DNA from: a virus
Lineage: Duplodnaviria; Heunggongvirae; Uroviricota; Caudoviricetes
DNA length: 17,310 nucleotides
Virus record (IMG/VR): IMGVR_UViG_2563366958_000013
Reading direction: 5' to 3' (one strand)
The notes below the pieces were generated by a model. It was not told where the DNA came from. It did no database searches and worked only from the letters and a program-made list of their open reading frames with translations. Position 1 is the stretch's first letter; every line of letters starts with the position of its first letter. A program made the position numbers and the translations under genes. Positions 8,694 to 17,310 of the stretch are shown here, piece after piece.

Positions 8694-11600
8694 ATGGGTA
8701 AAGGAAGCAGTAAGGGGCATACCCCGCGCGAAGCGAAGGACAACCTGAAGTCCACGCAGTTGCTGAGTGTGATCGATGCCATCAGCGAAGGGCCGGTTGA
8801 AGGTCCGGTGGATGGATTAAAAAGCGTGCTGCTGAACAGTACGCCGGTGCTGGACACTGAGGGGAATACCAACATCTCCGGTGTCACGGTGGTGTTCCGT
8901 GCCGGTGAGCAGGAGCAGACACCGCCGGAGGGGTTTGAATCCTCCGGCTCCGAGACGGTGCTGGGTACGGAAGTGAAATATGACACGCCGATCACCCGCA
9001 CCATTACGTCTGCAAACATCGACCGTCTGCGCTTTACCTTCGGTGTACAGGCACTGGTGGAAACCACCTCAAAGGGTGACAGGAATCCGTCGGAAGTCCG
9101 TCTGCTGGTTCAGATACAACGTAACGGTGGCTGGGTGACGGAAAAAGACATCACCATTAAGGGCAAAACCACCTCGCAGTATCTGGCCTCGGTGGTGGTG
9201 GGTAACCTGCCGCCGCGCCCGTTTAATATCCGGATGCGCAGGATGACGCCGGACAGCACCACAGACCAGCTGCAGAACAAAACGCTCTGGTCGTCATACA
9301 CCGAAATCATCGATGTGAAACAGTGCTACCCGAACACGGCACTGGTCGGCGTGCAGGTGGACTCGGAGCAGTTCGGCAGCCAGCAGGTGAGCCGTAATTA
9401 TCATCTTCGCGGGCGCATTCTGCAGGTGCCGTCGAACTATAACCCGCAGACGCGGCAATACAGCGGTATCTGGGACGGAACGTTTAAGCCGGCATACAGC
9501 AACAACCCGGCCTGGTGTCTGTGGGATATGCTGACCCACCCGCGCTACGGCATGGGGAAACGTCTTGGTGCGGCGGATGTGGATAAATGGGCGCTGTATG
9601 TCATCGGCCAGTACTGCGACCAGTCAGTGCCGGACGGTTTTGGCGGCACGGAGCCGCGCATCACCTGTAATGCCTGGCTGACCACGCAGCGTAAGGCGTG
9701 GGATGTGCTCAGTGATTTCTGCTCGGCGATGCGCTGTATGCCGGTATGGAACGGGCAGACGCTGACGTTCGTGCAGGACCGACCATCAGATAAGGTGTGG
9801 ACCTATAACCGCAGTAATGTGGTGATGCCGGATGATGGCGCGCCGTTCCGCTACAGCTTCAGCGCCCTGAAGGACCGCCATAATGCCGTTGAGGTGAACT
9901 GGATTGACCCGAACAACGGCTGGGAGACGGCGACAGAGCTTGTTGAAGATACGCAGGCCATTGTCCGTTACGGTCGTAATGTCACGAAGATGGATGCCTT
10001 TGGCTGTACCAGCCGGGGGCAGGCACACCGCGCCGGGCTGTGGCTGATTAAAACTGAACTGCTGGAGACGCAGACCGTGGATTTCAGCGTGGGTGCTGAA
10101 GGGCTTCGCCATGTACCGGGCGATGTCATTGAAATCTGCGATGATGACTATGCCGGTATCAGCACCGGTGGTCGCGTGCTGGCGGTGAACAGCCAGACCC
10201 GGACGCTGACGCTCGACCGTGAAATCACGCTGCCATCCTCCGGTACCACGCTGATAAGCCTGGTTGACGGAAGTGGCAATCCGGTCAGCGTGGAGGTTCA
10301 GTCCGTCACCGACGGACTTAAGGTGAAAGTGAACCGGGTTCCTGACGGCGTTGCAGAATACAGTGTGTGGGGGCTGAAGTTGCCGACGTTGCGTCAGCGC
10401 CTGTTCCGCTGTGTGAGTATCCGGGAGAACGATGACGGTGCGTATGCCATCACCGCCGTGCAGCATGTACCGGAAAAAGAAGCCATCGTGGATAACGGGG
10501 CGCACTTTGACGGCGACCAGAGCGGCACGGTGAATGGTGTCACGCCGCCAGCGGTGCAGCACCTGACCGCCGAAGTCACCGCAGACAGCGGGGAATATCA
10601 GGTGCTGGCGCGCTGGGACACGCCGAAGGTGGTGAAGGGCGTGAGCTTCCTGCTCCGTCTGACCGTAACAGCGGATGACGGCAGTGAGCGGCTGGTCAGC
10701 ACGGCCCGGACGGCGGAAACCACTTACCGCTTCAGGCAGCTGGCGCTGGGGCGTTACACGCTGACGGTCCGGGCGGTAAATGCCCGGGGACAGCAGGGCG
10801 ATCCGGCGTCGGTATCGTTCCGGATTGCCGCACCGGCAGCACCGTCGAGGATTGAGCTGACGCCGGGCTATTTTCAGATAACCGCCACGCCGCATCTTGC
10901 CGTTTATGACCCGACGGTACAGTTTGAGTTCTGGTTCTCGGAAAAGCGGATTACCGATATCAGGCAGGTTGAAACCACAGCCCGCTATCTTGGTACGGCG
11001 CTGTACTGGATAGCCGCCAGTATCAATATCAAACCGGGCCATGATTATTACTTTTATATCCGCAGTGTGAACACCGTTGGCAAATCGGCATTCGTGGAGG
11101 CTGTCGGTCAGGCGAGCGATGATGCGGAAGGTTACCTGGATTTTTTCAAAGGCCAGATAACCGAATCCCATCTCGGCAAGGAGCTGCTGGAAAAAGTCGA
11201 GCTGACGGAGGATAACGCCAGCAGACTGGAGGAGTTTTCGAAAGAGTGGCAGGACGCTAACGATAAGTGGAATGCCATGTGGGGCGTCAAAATTGAGCAG
11301 ACCAAAGACGGCAAACATTATGTCGCGGGTATTGGCCTCAGCATGGAGGACACGGAAGAAGGCAAGCTGAGCCAGTTTCTGGTTGCCGCTAACCGTATCG
11401 CGTTTATTGACCCGGCAAACGGGAATGAAACGCCGATGTTTGTGGCGCAGGGCAATCAGATATTTATGAACGACGTGTTCCTGAAGCGCCTGACGGCCCC
11501 GACCATTACCAGTGGTGGAAATCCACCGGCATTTTCCCTGACATCAGACGGAAAGCTGACCGCTAAAAATGCGGATATCAGTGGCAGAGTGAATGCGAAC

Positions 11601-12107
11601 GCCGGGACGCTCAACAATGTCACGGTAAATGAAAACTGTACGATTAAGGGCATGCTGGAGGCGACTCAGGTCAGAGGTGACTTCGTTAAAGCTGTATCCA
11701 AATCATTCCCGAAACAGGCTGGTACGTGGGGTAACACGGAAACACCAAACGGGACGGTTACAGTCACCATCAGCGATGATCATAACTTTGACCGTCAAAT
11801 CATTATTCCGCCCATTATCTTTAACGGAATAGCGTATAGCGATCCGGGAAGTGGTAATAACCCGGGAGGTACAAGATACACGGGTTATGGTTTTGAAGTT
11901 CGCAAAAACGGTGTATTAATCGCATCCAGAGAAACTAAAGGGGCCATTCCCGGTAGCTACAGTGCGGTTATTGATATGCCGAGTGGCAGGGGAAGCGTCA
12001 CTCTGGAGTTTAAGGTTTTCCATAAAGGCAATCAGTGGGCAGGTAATATCACCGACTGTACGGTGATTGTGACCAAAAAAGCCGCTTCCGGCATCAGTAT
12101 TCGTTGA
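8694..12107 (+). CDS. J: tail tip attachment / central tail fiber (host specificity) protein J
   Basis: 1137-aa product; the first ~1000 residues ([34 protein letters not shown]...) closely match lambda gpJ as I recall it; the last ~130 residues look divergent. RBS GAGGAA upstream. Confidence 0.92.
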
Positions 12108-12176: not shown

Positions 12177-12776
12177 ATGCGTAAACTTTATGCCGCCATT
12201 TTGTCCGCAGCCATTTGTCTGGCCGTATCCGGTGCGCCTGCATGGGCATCTGAACATCAGTCCACGCTGAGCGCGGGGTATCTTCATGCCCGGACCAACG
12301 TTCCCGGCAGTGATGATCTGAACGGGATTAACGTGAAATACCGTTATGAGTTTACGGATACGCTGGGGCTGGTGACGTCATTCAGCTATGCAGGAGACAA
12401 GAATCGCCAGCTGACCCGTTACAGCGATACCAGCTGGCATGAAGATTCCGTGCGTAACCGCTGGTTCAGCGTGATGGCGGGGCCGTCTGTGCGCGTGAAT
12501 GAATGGTTCAGCGCGTATGCGATGGCGGGTATGGCTTACAGCCGTGTTTCGACTTTTTCCGGGGATTACCTTCGCGTAACTGACAACAAGGGGAAAACGC
12601 ACGATGTGCTGACCGGAAGTGATGACGGTCGCCACAGCAACACGTCTCTGGCGTGGGGGGCTGGCGTGCAGTTTAACCCGACCGAATCCGTGGCCATTGA
12701 TATTGCTTATGAAGGTTCTGGCAGTGGTGACTGGCGCACTGACGGTTTCATCGTGGGTGTCGGTTATAAATTCTGA
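12177..12776 (+). CDS. lom: outer membrane beta-barrel protein Lom (Ail/Lom/PagC/OmpX family), lysogenic-conversion moron
   Basis: 199-aa product MRKLYAAILSAAICLAVSGAPAWASEHQSTLSAGYLHARTNVPGSDDLNGINVKYRYEF...GFIVGVGYKF matches lambda Lom; signal peptide with AWA-SE cleavage context, C-terminal aromatic residue (F) typical of OMP barrels; RBS GAGAGG. Confidence 0.9.
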   Translation: MRKLYAAILSAAICLAVSGAPAWASEHQSTLSAGYLHARTNVPGSDDLNGINVKYRYEFTDTLGLVTSFSYAGDKNRQLTRYSDTSWHEDSVRNRWFSVMAGPSVRVNEWFSAYAMAGMAYSRVSTFSGDYLRVTDNKGKTHDVLTGSDDGRHSNTSLAWGAGVQFNPTESVAIDIAYEGSGSGDWRTDGFIVGVGYKF

Positions 12777-12840: not shown

Positions 12841-15237
12841 ATGGCAGTAAAGATTTCAGGTGTACTGAAAGACGGCACAGGAAAACCGGTACAGAACTGC
12901 TCAATCCAGCTGAAAGCAAAACGTAACAGCACCACGGTGGTAGTGAACACGCTGGCCTCAGAAAATCCGGATGAAGCCGGGCGTTACAGTATGGATGTTG
13001 AGTATGGCCAGTACAGCGTTATCCTGCTGGTTGAAGGTTTTTCGCCTTCACATGCCGGGACCATCACCGTGTATGAAGATTCTAAGCCGGGGACGCTGAA
13101 TGATTTTCTCGGTGCCATGACGGAAGATGATGTCATGCCGGAGGCATTGCGTCGTTTTGAGGAAATGGTGGAAGAAGCGGCACGCAACGCTGAAGCCGCC
13201 TCTCAGAGCGCAGCGGCGGCAAAGAAATCCGAAACTGCAGCGGCATCATCGAAGAACGCGGCGAAAACCTCAGAAACGAATGCAGCTAATAGTGCACAGG
13301 CGGCAGCGACCTCAAAGACTGCATCGGCAAACTCCGCGACAGCAGCCAAAAAATCAGAAACCAACGCGAAAAATAGCGAGACAGCCGCAAAGACGAGCGA
13401 AACCAACGCAAAGTCCAGCCAGACGGCAGCGAAAACCAGCGAAACGAATGCCAAAGCCAGTGAAACTGCGGCAAAAAACAGCCAGGTTGCAGCAGCCCAA
13501 AGCGAGAGCGCGGCAGCCGGTTCTGCGACTTCAGCAGCTGGATCAGCAACTGCTGCGGCTAACAGCCAGAAAGCTGCGAAGACGAGTGAAACTAACGCAA
13601 AGTCCAGCCAGACGGCAGCGAAGACCAGCGAAACGAATGCCAAAGCCAGCGAAACTGCGGCGAAAAACAGTCAGGATGCAGCAGCCCAAAGCGAGAGTGC
13701 TGCAGCTGGTTCTGCAAGCGCGGCGGCTGCTTCTGCCACTGCATCAGCCAACAGTCAAAAAGCAGCAAAAACCAGTGAAACCAATGCAAAGACAAGCGAG
13801 ACTGCAGCGGCGAACTCGGCGAAAGCATCGGCAGCAAGCCAGACAGCAGCTAAAGCAAGTGAAGACGCAGCCAGAGAGTATGCAAGTCAGGCAGCAGAGC
13901 CGTATAAATATGTCTTACAGCCACTGCCTGATGTGTGGATACCGTTTAACGATTCACTGGATATGATTACGGGCTTTTCGCCGTCATATAAAAAAATTGT
14001 TATTGGTGATGATGAAATAACGATGCCTGGCGACAAGGTTGTTAAGTTTAAACGCGCATCAACTGCCACATATATCAATAAATCAGGCGTATTTAGTGTT
14101 GCTAAAATTGATGAGCCACGATTTGAAAAAGAAGGTTTATTGATTGAAGGACAGCGCACTAACTATTTTGTTAAATCCAATACTCCCGCTGAATGGACGA
14201 GTACCAGCAATATCGATAAAACTAATAATGGTGTTGATGAATTTGGTTTTTCATATGCCAAAATGCGAACAAAAGATAATATGACAGGACAATCATCTGC
14301 ACTTAGTCTGCATACATGCAGTGCATCCCGGGGGATTGATGTTTGTGGCGATAATAAGTATTGCACTGTTTCATGCAGGGTTAAAGCTCCTGATGGTCTT
14401 CGTTGTCGTTTGCGTTTTGAAAAATACGATGGGTCGGTTTATACATTTTTAGGAGATGCTTATTTAACTTTCGGAACTCTGATAATAGAAAAAACTGGCG
14501 GAGCAGCCAATAGAATAGCAGCTACTGCAACTAAAGATCCGGTTACAGGGTGGATTTTCTATGAGGCAACTATAGAAGCTGTTGAAGGTGAAACCTTAAT
14601 TGGCGCAATGATTCAGTATGCGCCGAAAAAAGGTGGTATAACTGAAGCGGGAGATTATATTTACCTTGCAACACCACAATTTGAAAACGGCGGATGTGCT
14701 TCATCTTTTGTTATTACGACAACTGCACCCGCAACCCGCTCCAGTGATATGGTGACGATCCCAACTGAAAATAATATCTATAATAGACCGCTTACGTGTC
14801 TTGTCGAGGTTAATAGAAATTGGGGCGATATTCCTCCTAATGTAGCACCGCGTATTTTTGATTTTTCTGGTGTGCCACCTATTGAGTCAATTACATACGC
14901 TTTTAACACAACTGAGAAATATTACGGTCAGCTTTATATGCAAACTTATAAAGCGTCGACAAGTACTTACGTTTCTAGTGTGTTTGCTGGTCGAGCTGAT
15001 GTTCGAAAATTCATTGGTGGTTTTAATATTTATTCTGATGGTACTAAACGAGTAGTTTCTAACGGTGAGGCTACTAAAACTATGAAAACGGAGTGGACGG
15101 GCGTAAAAACACGGACCTTTATTCGAATTGGAGGTCAAGCCACATCGGGAACTCGTCATCTATTCGGCCATTTGAGAAATCTTCGTCTCTGGCATAAAGA
15201 ATTAACTGATGCGCAAATGGGGGAGAGTATTAAATGA
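12841..15237 (+). CDS. stf: side tail fiber protein, chimeric: lambda Stf-like N-terminus, Ala/Ser/Thr-rich repeat shaft, non-lambda C-terminal domain with a LamG/ConA-like signature
   Basis: 798-aa ORF; N-terminus MAVKISGVLKDGTGKPVQNCSIQLKAKRNSTTVVVNT...SKPGTLNDFLGAMTEDDVMPEALRRFEEMVEEAARNAEAA matches lambda Stf as I recall it. The central region is tandem repeats (AAKTSETNAKSSQT...). The C-terminal ~440 aa are AT-rich DNA and end ...GHLRNLRLWHKELTDAQMGESIK, which resembles the terminal motif of Laminin_G_3/ConA-like jelly-roll domains. RBS GGGGGGA upstream. Confidence 0.8.
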   Translation: MAVKISGVLKDGTGKPVQNCSIQLKAKRNSTTVVVNTLASENPDEAGRYSMDVEYGQYSVILLVEGFSPSHAGTITVYEDSKPGTLNDFLGAMTEDDVMPEALRRFEEMVEEAARNAEAASQSAAAAKKSETAAASSKNAAKTSETNAANSAQAAATSKTASANSATAAKKSETNAKNSETAAKTSETNAKSSQTAAKTSETNAKASETAAKNSQVAAAQSESAAAGSATSAAGSATAAANSQKAAKTSETNAKSSQTAAKTSETNAKASETAAKNSQDAAAQSESAAAGSASAAAASATASANSQKAAKTSETNAKTSETAAANSAKASAASQTAAKASEDAAREYASQAAEPYKYVLQPLPDVWIPFNDSLDMITGFSPSYKKIVIGDDEITMPGDKVVKFKRASTATYINKSGVFSVAKIDEPRFEKEGLLIEGQRTNYFVKSNTPAEWTSTSNIDKTNNGVDEFGFSYAKMRTKDNMTGQSSALSLHTCSASRGIDVCGDNKYCTVSCRVKAPDGLRCRLRFEKYDGSVYTFLGDAYLTFGTLIIEKTGGAANRIAATATKDPVTGWIFYEATIEAVEGETLIGAMIQYAPKKGGITEAGDYIYLATPQFENGGCASSFVITTTAPATRSSDMVTIPTENNIYNRPLTCLVEVNRNWGDIPPNVAPRIFDFSGVPPIESITYAFNTTEKYYGQLYMQTYKASTSTYVSSVFAGRADVRKFIGGFNIYSDGTKRVVSNGEATKTMKTEWTGVKTRTFIRIGGQATSGTRHLFGHLRNLRLWHKELTDAQMGESIK
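13387..13764 (+). repeat. two tandem ~189-bp (63-codon) imperfect direct repeats inside stf, with a partial third copy starting at 13765
   Basis: Unit beginning gc(a/g)aagacgag(c/t)gaaac(c/t)aacgcaaagtccagccagacggcagcgaa at 13387 recurs at 13576 with about 90% identity; protein repeat AAKTSETNAKSSQTAAKTSETNAKASETAAKNSQ(V/D)AAAQSESAAAGSA... Shorter ~14-codon sub-repeats extend from ~13200 to ~13860. Confidence 0.8.
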
Positions 15238-15381
15238 AAGATTTAACACTCAAATTTGCAGACAGGGCCGACTTTTCGGCCTTTATGGAGAGCATTGGCT
15301 ATTATGATGACGAGTCGATGCAGGATGATATTCTTATTGACGTGATAGGTAATGTGTACAAAGAAACCGGAGAACTTACTG

Positions 15382-15390
15382 AAGATGGCG
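15382..15390. repeat. IS1 target site duplication, left copy (AAGATGGCG)
   Basis: 9 bp immediately 5' of IS1 IRL, identical to 16159-16167. Confidence 0.9.
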
Positions 15391-15445
15391 GGTGATGCTG
15401 CCAACTTACTGATTTAGTGTATGATGGTGTTTTTGAGGTGCTCCA

Positions 15446-15721
15446 GTGGCTTCTGTTTCTATCAGCTGTCCCTCCTGTTCAGCTACTGACGGGGTGGTGC
15501 GTAACGGCAAAAGCACCGCCGGACATCAGCGCTATCTCTGCTCTCACTGCCGTAAAACATGGCAACTGCAGTTCACTTACACCGCTTCTCAACCCGGTAC
15601 GCACCAGAAAATCATTGATATGGCCATGAATGGCGTTGGATGCCGGGCAACAGCCCGCATTATGGGCGTTGGCCTCAACACGATTTTACGTCACTTAAAA
15701 AACTCAGGCCGCAGTCGGTAA
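15446..15721 (+). CDS. insA: IS1 protein InsA (transposition inhibitor / N-terminal part of InsAB' transposase)
   Basis: 91-aa product [91 protein letters not shown], the IS1 InsA sequence with zinc-finger Cys motif; begins at IS1 nt 56. Confidence 0.95.
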
Positions 15722-16143
15722 CCTCGCGCATACAGCCGGGCAGTGACGTCATCGTCTGCGCGGAAATGGACGAACAGTGGGGCTATGTCGGGGCTAAATC
15801 GCGCCAGCGCTGGCTGTTTTACGCGTATGACAGGCTCCGGAAGACGGTTGTTGCGCACGTATTCGGTGAACGCACTATGGCGACGCTGGGGCGTCTTATG
15901 AGCCTGCTGTCACCCTTTGACGTGGTGATATGGATGACGGATGGCTGGCCGCTGTATGAATCCCGCCTGAAGGGAAAGCTGCACGTAATCAGCAAGCGAT
16001 ATACGCAGCGAATTGAGCGGCATAACCTGAATCTGAGGCAGCACCTGGCACGGCTGGGACGGAAGTCGCTGTCGTTCTCAAAATCGGTGGAGCTGCATGA
16101 CAAAGTCATCGGGCATTATCTGAACATAAAACACTATCAATAA
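15640..16143 (+). CDS. insB: IS1 InsB' reading frame; expressed as InsAB' transposase by -1 frameshift at the A6C motif (15697-15703)
   Basis: -1 frame ORF relative to insA, product ...[55 protein letters not shown]... matches IS1 InsB; the ORF-track start at 15640 is the frame opening, not necessarily a used start; slippery TTAAAAAACTC present. Confidence 0.9.
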
Positions 16144-16158
16144 GTTGGAGTCATTACC

Positions 16159-16167
16159 AAGATGGCG
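16159..16167. repeat. IS1 target site duplication, right copy (AAGATGGCG)
   Basis: 9 bp immediately 3' of IS1 IRR, identical to 15382-15390. Confidence 0.9.
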
Positions 16168-16301
16168 AGCCGGTATGTGTTAAGGAGGACGGATATTTTG
16201 TAAATGTGCGCATCATTAATGATTCGCAAATATCGTCATTATTCGATGAATACGTGGTTGCTGTTGAGCATCAACTCCGTAGCTGGATGTGAGGAAGAAA
16301 A

Positions 16302-17006
16302 ATGGCTACATCGACAGTAATTCCTGATGACATCAAAACGCTAAAGGGAGATGTCAGTAAGGCAAAGGAAGATATTTCCTCAATTAACGTAAAAGTATCA
16401 ACGCTTCAGACTGATATGGACAGTGCAAAGCAGGATATCAGTACCAGATACACAAAAACAGAAGTGGATAATAAGCTGAAAAACAAAGTGGAAGTGAACG
16501 ATCTGGAAAGTGGTCGTTATGGCGGAGATTTTTACCCGCTGACTGGCCGTGAAGCGTTTTATTTATGGGGATTGGGCACAACTACAGCGGCGGCAAATCT
16601 TTATCTTAATCCTGACCCTGCAATTTCGTCTGTGCTGCGGTCAACATCGTCTATCCGCTATAAACATTCAGTAGAGACGATAGATTCAGAGCACGCCGAT
16701 CTCATTTTCAGGATGCGCCCTGTGTGGTACAGGTCGCAATGCGAAAATGACAGGCGTGACTGGGGATTCTATGGATTGATTGCCGAGGAAGTAGGAGAAA
16801 TTGCCCCTCAGTTTGTTCACTGGCGACCAGCCAACGAAGATGATGCACCGGAAACCATTTCCAGCAATGGCCTTGTTGCCGAAGGTGTAATGTACGAACG
16901 TCTGGTTGTTCCACTGATTCACCATATCCAGAAACTGACTGAAAGAGTTGATGAACTTGAGTCAGAATTGAAGTTGTTATCAACTTCCCAAAGCGATATC
17001 GGATAA
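16302..17006 (+). CDS. tail-fiber-like protein: N-terminal coiled-coil segment plus C-terminal intramolecular chaperone (peptidase S74-like) domain
   Basis: 234-aa ORF with RBS GAGGAAG. N-terminus has heptad-like pattern (DIKTLKGDVSKAKEDISSINVKVSTLQTDMDSAKQDIS). C-terminal half carries SSIRYKHSVETID...ADLIFRMRPVWYRSQ...DWGFYGLIAEEVGEIAPQFV, which fits the S74 chaperone consensus as I recall it (SDxRxKxNI...L.PV.Y.W...GFIAQEV.EV.PE.V). Motif-level call only. Confidence 0.5.
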   Translation: MATSTVIPDDIKTLKGDVSKAKEDISSINVKVSTLQTDMDSAKQDISTRYTKTEVDNKLKNKVEVNDLESGRYGGDFYPLTGREAFYLWGLGTTTAAANLYLNPDPAISSVLRSTSSIRYKHSVETIDSEHADLIFRMRPVWYRSQCENDRRDWGFYGLIAEEVGEIAPQFVHWRPANEDDAPETISSNGLVAEGVMYERLVVPLIHHIQKLTERVDELESELKLLSTSQSDIG

Positions 17007-17016
17007 AGGAGGAGTA

Positions 17017-17310
17017 ATGGATATAACACCTTTTCTTCATGCGCTTTGTGCTGTGGCTGCGCAGGTAATGATTGGTCTTTTTGCCGGAAACTGGGTTTAC
17101 GGGGCGATAGCCGGTTGTACGTTCTTCATTGCGCGTGAACACACCCAGGCAGAATATCGCTGGATTGAAATGTTCGGGCATGGCAAGTGGATTAACATGC
17201 CGTGGTGGGGCGGTTTTGATCCGCGTGTTTGGGATGTGGCAAGCCTGATAGATTTTGCTGTGCCGGTGGTGGCGTGTCTGCTGGTCTGGCTGTTGGTTAA
17301 TCGTGGGTGA
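17017..17310 (+). CDS. small hydrophobic (predicted inner-membrane) protein, unknown function
   Basis: 97-aa ORF with strong RBS AAGGAGG 8 nt upstream; two long hydrophobic stretches (FLHALCAVAAQVMIGLFAGNWVYGAIAGCTFFIA and LIDFAVPVVACLLVWLLV) with a Trp-rich loop; stop TGA is the last codon of the window. Confidence 0.5.
   Translation: MDITPFLHALCAVAAQVMIGLFAGNWVYGAIAGCTFFIAREHTQAEYRWIEMFGHGKWINMPWWGGFDPRVWDVASLIDFAVPVVACLLVWLLVNRG

Follow-up and report, generated by a model that had tools for sequence, protein, structure and literature searches.

The 17,310-nucleotide (nt) stretch of viral DNA analysed here (the window; IMG/VR record IMGVR_UViG_2563366958_000013) is the tail region of a lambda-like prophage, with tail genes, the tape measure gene, J, lom and stf, which encodes the side tail fibre (Stf). 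Directly behind stf, where lambda carries tfa, lies a small acidic open reading frame (ORF) that has been split by a copy of the insertion sequence IS1. When restored, this ORF encodes a protein of 93 amino acids (aa) that belongs to a family already catalogued (PHROG 1361) and widespread, yet undescribed in the literature. The family is not structurally related to known fibre chaperones or connectors, and it is tied tightly to one type of fibre head, a lectin-like domain at the C-terminal end of the preceding fibre protein. Judged from sequence, the small protein very probably associates with this head in some form. There is about an even chance that it is a dedicated accessory subunit of the head, that is, an assembly helper that would stay in place as part of a distal-fibre joint.

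Gene order provides the first evidence for the association. A tblastn search with the small protein finds 183 phage records, among them lambdoid phages (phage 21), Drexlerviridae, Dhillonvirus and Queuovirinae, along with phages of the T5-like and rV5-like groups; in every listed annotated record, the match lies under or adjoins a fibre or tail gene. The last 206 residues of Stf, used as query in the same way, hit 205 phage records, whose taxon spectrum matches. The excess of head records is at least partly an effect of tblastn sensitivity: AKFV33 was missed with the small protein as query, yet its orf136 scores E 8e-22 against the hidden Markov model of the family. Thus, given that the taxon spectra match and that the missed case still carries the small protein, head and small protein form an essentially obligate pair. 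Individual loci were read in PhiR49_1, KarlJaspers, VogelGryff, IrisVonRoten, EmilHeitz, AKFV33, phage 21, 2G7b, IdasGreatGrand and PhiR49_2, together with 26 loci from IMG/VR and two from metagenomes, to which distant family members, used as single queries, had led. Wherever upstream sequence is present (37/37 loci), the small ORF lies directly behind a gene for a fibre-like protein with a CBM/LamG-like C-terminal head, usually overlapping it as ATGA or by 1 nt. This holds for lambdoid phages, Drexlerviridae, Seuratvirus, P2-like phages and environmental contigs as well as for T5-like phages (gp22-23-24 of IrisVonRoten and orf137-136-135 of AKFV33) and the rV5-like EmilHeitz. The heads share the motif G-h-(I/L)-(R/K)-x-h-R-h-(W/F/Y)...L-(T/S)-x-x-(Q/E)-(L/M), which takes the form ...RHLFGH(I/L/V)RN(F/L)R(I/L)WHK(A/E)LTDxQ... 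in enteric phages and a recognisable variant, such as GWLRNVRYIPRRITNAELQALTT, in distant ones. A regular expression for the motif matches 32 of the 37 heads, and the remaining five visibly contain the same motif. As a control, the expression matches 28 of 774 ORF segments of the same loci, which does not exceed the count of true upstream ORFs in the set.

An earlier note on this DNA had offered two readings of the ORF, an unrecognised fibre chaperone or adaptor for the distal domain of Stf, or an unrelated accessory protein. A check for intact copies beside similar stf genes finds that homologues adjoin tail fibre genes in every locus examined. Consequently, the gene context best supports the first of these readings, and the second is unlikely. 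In the second reading, the ORF would be a passenger (a moron, or an anti-defence or exclusion factor) within the variable region that follows stf. Morons are frequent at the right end of lambdoid late operons, and here lom lies upstream of the ORF and a small membrane protein gene downstream; in addition, neither the sequence nor the predicted fold reveals a function. However, morons are not kept in strict, coupled adjacency to the same head, as this ORF is in virulent T5-like and rV5-like phages, Drexlerviridae, P2-like phages and environmental contigs. PADLOC returns 0 families at E<=0.1 for the 93-aa protein, and inspection by eye, with no predictor run, reveals no obvious signal peptide or membrane segment. 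A passenger is therefore quite improbable.

The head itself can be recognised in Stf. The N-terminus of Stf is a PF08400 attachment domain, which is followed by a shaft of Ala/Ser-rich repeats. Beyond the shaft, residues ~434-634 (nt 14140-14742) form a "head spike fibre"/CBM-like domain and residues ~635-798 (nt 14743-15234) a terminal LamG-like one, whose C-terminal end reads ...RHLFGHLRNLRLWHKELTDAQMGESIK. The C-terminal region matches the NCBIfam model "phage head spike fiber" (5.5e-15) and, weakly, the PDB sequence of the RcGTA head spike fibre; a 252-aa homologue of this region (81% identical over 62% of the query) carries Laminin_G_3. This assignment, made from sequence, agrees with published descriptions of a C-terminal "galectin-like domain" in IrisVonRoten Gp22 by the BASEL authors (PMC11990801) and of a "lectin-like head D69" in the RBPseg study, seen there on lateral fibres of siphoviruses and on an EmilHeitz fibre (PMC12143355). 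The last 150 aa of the head have a pI >8 in 22 of 32 loci. Within the shaft, the DNA from 13338 to 13809 consists of imperfect tandem repeats with periods of 21, 42 and 189 nt, encoding Ala/Ser/Thr-rich, heptad-like repeats of the KTSETNAK type, and is likely a site of length variation by recombination.

The restored 93-aa protein matches PHROG 1361 over its full length (E 2.7e-46; residues 1-93 on positions 1-92 of the 92-position profile). PHROG 1361 has no assigned function. Its members include IrisVonRoten Gp23 (bas32_0023), AKFV33 ORF136, phage 21 gp23 and KarlJaspers bas06_0036, and its entries from E. coli prophages are named "hypothetical protein" or "Prophage protein". The window protein shares their length, their acidity and their position behind a LamG-headed fibre gene, and its identity to homologues from four further phage lineages (Drexlerviridae, Seuratvirus, T5-like) is 39-54%. 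The family is small and confined to phages: in a set of 1.84 billion representative proteins, 49 clusters at 50% identity reach E<=1e-3, and clusters at 90% identity number 227-363, all "hypothetical" or "prophage protein" and none with a Pfam domain. Natural fusions of head and small protein were sought and none was found, every relative listed being <=150 aa. A literature search found no paper describing the small protein or its family.

The consensus of the family is MKDLxLKF ... D-x-I-G ... G-Y-F-V-N-V-R ... P-x-R-V-W-A, and the motifs MxDxxLxF, D-x-I-G, G-(Y/W)-(F/H)-V-N-(V/L)-R and C-terminal R-x-W are all present in the reconstructed protein. In the family alignment, M1, G39 and R90 are invariant, and L6, F8, D36, G61, V64, N65 and W92 are at least 90% conserved. 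Closely related pairs give dN/dS values of 0.06-0.46; the gene is under purifying selection. Every member is acidic, with a pI of 4.05-4.9. A confident AF2 model built on the family alignment (pLDDT 86.6, pTM 0.72) predicts a small alpha/beta fold composed of a strand, a helix, a short helix, four strands and a helix. The final ~13 residues are modelled with less definition, and R90 and W92 lie in this lower-pLDDT tail. The model has no meaningful neighbour in the PDB, a Foldseek search of BFVD yields solely uncharacterised phage proteins of equal size, and a family-profile search of PDB sequences gives chance-level matches only (telomerase p19, E 0.018).

None of the known fibre chaperones and connectors compared here in sequence resembles this family. 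The 93-aa protein matches no Pfam family at E<=1 and no NCBIfam model; in particular, there is no match to Caudo_TAP (PF02413) or to Peptidase_S74 (PF13884), the latter domain being present in the next ORF instead. Comparison by hhalign, using a 20-member family alignment, gives probabilities of 0.08% against lambda Tfa, 0.33% against T4 gp35 and 0.35% against T4 gp38. Given the first of these values and the lack of a Caudo_TAP match, the possibility that the protein is a Tfa is ruled out, in line with the earlier note, which had seen no resemblance to lambda Tfa. The profile searches that the note had proposed for the 93-aa product match PHROG 1361 and no characterised, unrelated family.

What the small protein does share with lambda Tfa, P2 G and Mu U is its setting: it is coded directly behind a fibre gene, is co-expressed with it, and plausibly acts on the distal domain of that fibre. 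Such Tfa-like placement directly 3' of a fibre gene is common to many unrelated accessory genes. With T4 gp35, the hinge connector that joins gp34 to gp36-gp37, it shares a gene position between the proximal and distal fibre genes, and by analogy this order suggests a role at a non-covalent joint between fibres. T4 gp35 differs, however, in being a 372-aa protein without sequence similarity to the small protein, which, unlike gp35, also occurs where no distal fibre gene follows. T4 gp57A is a small, soluble, all-helical, general fibre chaperone that is not known to be coded beside its client fibres. Compared with this description of gp57A, the small protein is predicted to be mixed alpha/beta and strictly adjoins one head type.

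These comparisons bear on the possibility that the small protein is a pure folding chaperone for the LamG/CBM head, a counterpart of Tfa with another fold. It would act while trimer and head fold, and would then be released and absent from virions, leaving the distal fibre to dock on Stf itself. The coupled position behind the fibre gene is that of P2 H/G, Mu S/U, lambda stf/tfa and T4 37/38, and the small protein accompanies the head whatever follows, including in phage 21, which has no distal fibre. Moreover, monomer modelling gives a poor result for the terminal LamG-like domain (pLDDT 32-74) but a confident one for the neighbouring CBM domain, and Gp23 has no place in the published IrisVonRoten model, where Gp24 is joined to Gp22. 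Against this stand the lack of similarity to any known fibre chaperone and the lack of co-variation with head alleles, described below. In addition, the recurrent placement between proximal and distal fibres, together with a docking peptide specific to split fibres, fits a structural joint at least equally well. A chaperone of this kind is a possible explanation, but a tentative one.

The small-protein and fibre modules are mosaic. Between the window and 2G7b, the small proteins are 98% identical, the heads (last 206 aa) 48%, and the distal fibres 73% over the first 30 aa and 22% over the rest. Between 2G7b and VogelGryff, in turn, the small proteins are 42% identical, the heads 82%, and the first 30 aa of the distal fibres 50%. 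Overall, small-protein identity correlates weakly, and about equally, with identity of the head and of the distal N-terminus (rho 0.46-0.54, from non-independent pairs). For the C-terminal domains of Tfa and fibre tips, allele-specific co-evolution has been reported. The alleles of small protein and head, by comparison, reassort freely, and so the surface contacted by the small protein is taken to be a conserved one rather than the allele-specific, receptor-binding part of the head.

The same observation bears on another role for a protein that always accompanies a carbohydrate-binding-type head. As a transient cap or regulator, the small protein would mask the lectin site within the cell or on newly made particles, sparing progeny phage from being trapped on host debris, and would later be shed. 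Like Peptidase_S74 domains, the chaperones of Alteromonas phage fibres with lectin-like heads are accessory elements for the distal ends of fibres, and these chaperones have been proposed to act as transient caps (PMC10579305). An acidic protein paired with a basic head would also suit such a cap. However, the Alteromonas caps resemble intramolecular chaperone (IMC) domains (PMC10579305), whereas the predicted fold of the small protein is a different one, mixed alpha/beta, and lacks an S74 match. Free reassortment with heads of differing specificity further argues against contact with a variable glycan site. A cap is accordingly improbable.

The ORF that follows the small one encodes a second, short fibre protein; thus, the locus is a cassette of proximal fibre, small protein and distal fibre rather than an stf-tfa pair. 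In the 234-aa product, Peptidase_S74 (PF13884) spans residues 116-172 (E 4.6e-6). The protein aligns to the C-terminal end of PHROG 3299 (1385 positions) and is 59% identical to a KarlJaspers protein that the BASEL annotation calls "putative lateral tail fiber chaperone". Autocleavage at about residue 116 would leave a mature chain of ~115 residues, a very short stub fibre. Its N-terminal motif TVIPDDIKTLK is common to the distal fibres of related cassettes, and its first ~20 residues (MATSTVIPDDIKTLK) recur in downstream fibres that are otherwise unrelated, namely those of loci L007 and L008 (346 aa) and of 2G7b (345 aa), and the T-shaped fibres of IrisVonRoten (574 aa) and AKFV33 (557 aa). 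In T-shaped distal fibres, the first ~26 residues are present only where the fibre is a separate polypeptide coded behind head and small ORF; the fibres of DT57C (LtfA), Wifcevirus and Dhillonvirus are longer chains, within which homology sets in only from residue ~27.

The order of proximal fibre, small ORF and distal fibre is found in the window and in five other lineages, with three unrelated distal types: S74-type (the window and KarlJaspers), T-shaped (IrisVonRoten and AKFV33) and gp53-like with a Caudo_TAP Tfa (the P2-like loci L010-L012). These P2-like loci (L010 5001-6401; L011 3495-5027) encode a LamG-headed fibre, the small ORF, a distal fibre (Gp53-like_C, gp37_trimer), a Caudo_TAP Tfa and the sheath; hence, a single fibre locus can hold both the small protein and a classical Tfa. 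The order is not universal. In phage 21 and PhiR49_2, the small ORF is followed directly by the gene for the 97-aa membrane protein, in L009 by a baseplate gene of the Mu gpP/gp44 type, and in many environmental loci by holin-like or other genes.

Taken as an accessory subunit, the small protein would bind a conserved part of the head, not its variable receptor-binding surface. Binding would probably involve two strands, the conserved N-terminal one (MKDLxLKF) and that of GYFVNVR, as well as the C-terminal PxRxW tail, which is conserved but weakly structured, and the strongly acidic surface may aid binding to a head that is usually basic. The small protein would help the head to fold or to remain soluble. 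Where a second fibre gene follows, it would remain on the fibre in the joint and receive the N-terminal docking peptide of the distal fibre, a role that may be likened to that of T4 gp35 between the proximal and distal half-fibres.

This role is suggested by the 37/37 synteny, the matching taxon spectra and the retention of the order with three distal types, and also by the ~26-residue docking peptide confined to split fibres, the acidic and basic charges of the two partners, the conserved R90/W92 tail and the dN/dS values. The BASEL model of IrisVonRoten, in which Gp22 is the proximal fibre and its protruding galectin-like C-terminal domain carries Gp24, provides further support (PMC11990801). 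The BASEL authors call the galectin-like domain "additional" and number the proximal and distal fibres of AnnaHegner Gp9 and Gp10 (PMC11990801). From both points, AnnaHegner is read as probably having neither the domain nor an intervening gene. Within PMC11990801, a figure legend names the proximal fibre Gp22, the main text Gp23. In the IrisVonRoten genome (L004 6001-6279), Gp23 is the 92-aa small protein, which is annotated "tail fiber protein" and is not discussed in that paper.

Several points weigh on the other side. Binding to the head is deduced from synteny alone. The joint role cannot be universal, since phage 21, PhiR49_2, L009 and many environmental loci lack an adjacent distal fibre gene. 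The published IrisVonRoten model attaches Gp24 to Gp22 with no mention of Gp23 (PMC11990801), and the published virion proteomics of AKFV33 and rV5 is too shallow for small proteins, reporting major proteins only or not covering the gene. Finally, the charge complementarity has exceptions, as seen in the 22/32 count of basic heads, and the free reassortment of small-protein and head alleles leaves no allele-specific co-evolution. A bolder version, in which small protein and lectin-like head form a previously unrecognised plug-and-socket joint, with the small protein as a portable, virion-resident "knee-cap" that accepts the short N-terminal docking peptide of interchangeable distal fibres, is a speculative possibility. 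If true, this joint would be used by siphoviruses (lambdoid, T1-like, T5-like and Queuovirinae) and by myoviruses (P2-like and rV5-like), and would explain the swapping of distal receptor-binding modules between them.

The gene has been reconstructed by removing IS1 plus one target duplicate. Joining 15234-15390 to 16168-16292 yields 282 nt, that is, 93 codons and a stop, encoding a protein of pI 4.05 with 21 Asp/Glu and 7 Lys/Arg, exactly the counts that the earlier note had estimated. Escherichia phage PhiR49_1, in which the order stf, 93 aa, 234 aa and 97 aa is the same, has an intact, annotated gene that matches the reconstructed 282 nt at 100% identity; intact genes of identical sequence are also present in E. 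coli prophages. For a 1290-nt reconstruction free of IS1 (stf end, small ORF and next gene), five complete E. coli genomes give 100% identity and 182 of 5426 cover at least 80%, and sequence matching the module of head and small ORF is present in about one fifth of complete E. coli genomes. The reconstruction is not an artefact, and the small ORF is a genuine gene. As had been noted from the sequence, its ATG at 15234 overlaps the TGA of stf as ATGA, and a Shine-Dalgarno-like run (GGGGAGAG) lies a few bases 5' of this start. Thus, the ORF is translationally coupled to stf, so that the two proteins are made together.

The element that interrupts the gene has the characteristics of IS1, which are a length of 768 bp, insA and insB, and a 9-bp duplication. 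Its termini are the usual imperfect inverted repeats (expected length ~23 bp); insA (91 aa, GTG start) and insB are both intact, and Megablast of the region matched E. coli DNA annotated as IS1A/IS1B family transposase. In the interrupted copy, translation stops after 52 native residues and one Gly, giving a 53-aa product. IS1 thus removes residues 53-93, nearly all of the conserved core: the most conserved motifs, GYFVNVR and (P)xRxW, are encoded 3' of the element, and the product lacks G61, V64, N65, R90, W92 and about half of the fold. With these losses, the gene is inactivated here, and the proposed inactivation after codon 52 is borne out. The exact IS1 junction has no match among species-representative genomes or complete E. 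coli genomes; consequently, the insertion looks strain-specific. A second, independent IS1 is present in the same 282-bp gene of E. coli FDAARGOS_1250 (L039, NZ_CP069571, 3194-3961), at the equivalent of window position ~15341-15349, 41 bp upstream of the insertion in the window. This copy is flanked by a 9-bp duplication of its own, ACGTGATAG, and the prophage around it, adjoining appY, is decayed. Two IS1 insertions in one 282-bp gene suggest either a preferred target site or selection for inactivation.

The coordinates of these and the neighbouring features are collected in the table.

Table. Features of the right part of the window, in window coordinates
Feature	Position	Strand	Remarks
J	8694-12107		
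lom	12177-12776		199 aa, intact; full-length Ail_Lom match
stf, side tail fibre	12841-15237	+	798 aa
Small acidic ORF, 5' part, codons 1-52	15234-15390	+	identical to the intact gene of PhiR49_1
IS1 target-site duplication, left copy	15382-15390		9 bp, AAGATGGCG
IS1 element	15391-16158	+	768 bp; insA 15446-15721, insB 15640-16143; terminal inverted repeats
IS1 target-site duplication, right copy	16159-16167		9 bp
Small acidic ORF, 3' part, codons 53-93 and stop	16168-16292	+	GYFVNVR; C-terminal (P)xRxW
Second, short fibre protein	16302-17006	+	234 aa; coiled coil, then Peptidase_S74
Predicted membrane protein	17017-17310	+	97 aa; PHROG 1443

The 97-aa protein, whose stop is the last codon of the window, closes the cassette in the lambdoid relatives; phage 21 gp24, annotated with two transmembrane domains, is 89% identical to it. 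Beyond the point that corresponds to the right end of the window, PhiR49_1 (L001 8383-8641) and 2G7b (L036 6587-6885) contain short "tail fiber assembly protein" fragments of ~44-66 aa, downstream of the cassette and beside a ybcY-like methyltransferase gene. These look like remnants of an ancestral tfa, left behind when the cassette replaced the stf-tfa end. In PhiR49_1, otherwise near-identical to the window, lom is annotated as two separate coding sequences (L001 2935-3548). A 510-aa antisense ORF inside J (9786-11318, minus strand) is most likely fortuitous, this coding region being GC-biased.

For the prophage itself, loss of the small protein most likely means that defective or incomplete side fibres are made. 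IS1 probably also reduces expression of the downstream 234-aa and 97-aa genes through a putative polar effect. Lambda PaPa is viable without functional Stf, and by analogy the prophage may still form infectious particles that depend on J. The insertion is a case of ordinary prophage decay. An accessory gene behind a fibre gene is likewise a familiar arrangement; what is new is the undescribed family. Side and lateral tail fibres set the host range on enterobacteria that bear O-antigen and capsule, and they are swapped in engineered phages and delivery particles. The head and its small ORF are common in model phage families, such as the BASEL phages, the T5-like phages and phage 21. If folding of the head or attachment of the distal fibre requires the small protein, chimeric fibres made of such modules would not work in its absence, and structural models such as that of IrisVonRoten Gp22/Gp24 would have to include it. 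Should the small protein prove dispensable, this would be equally worth knowing.

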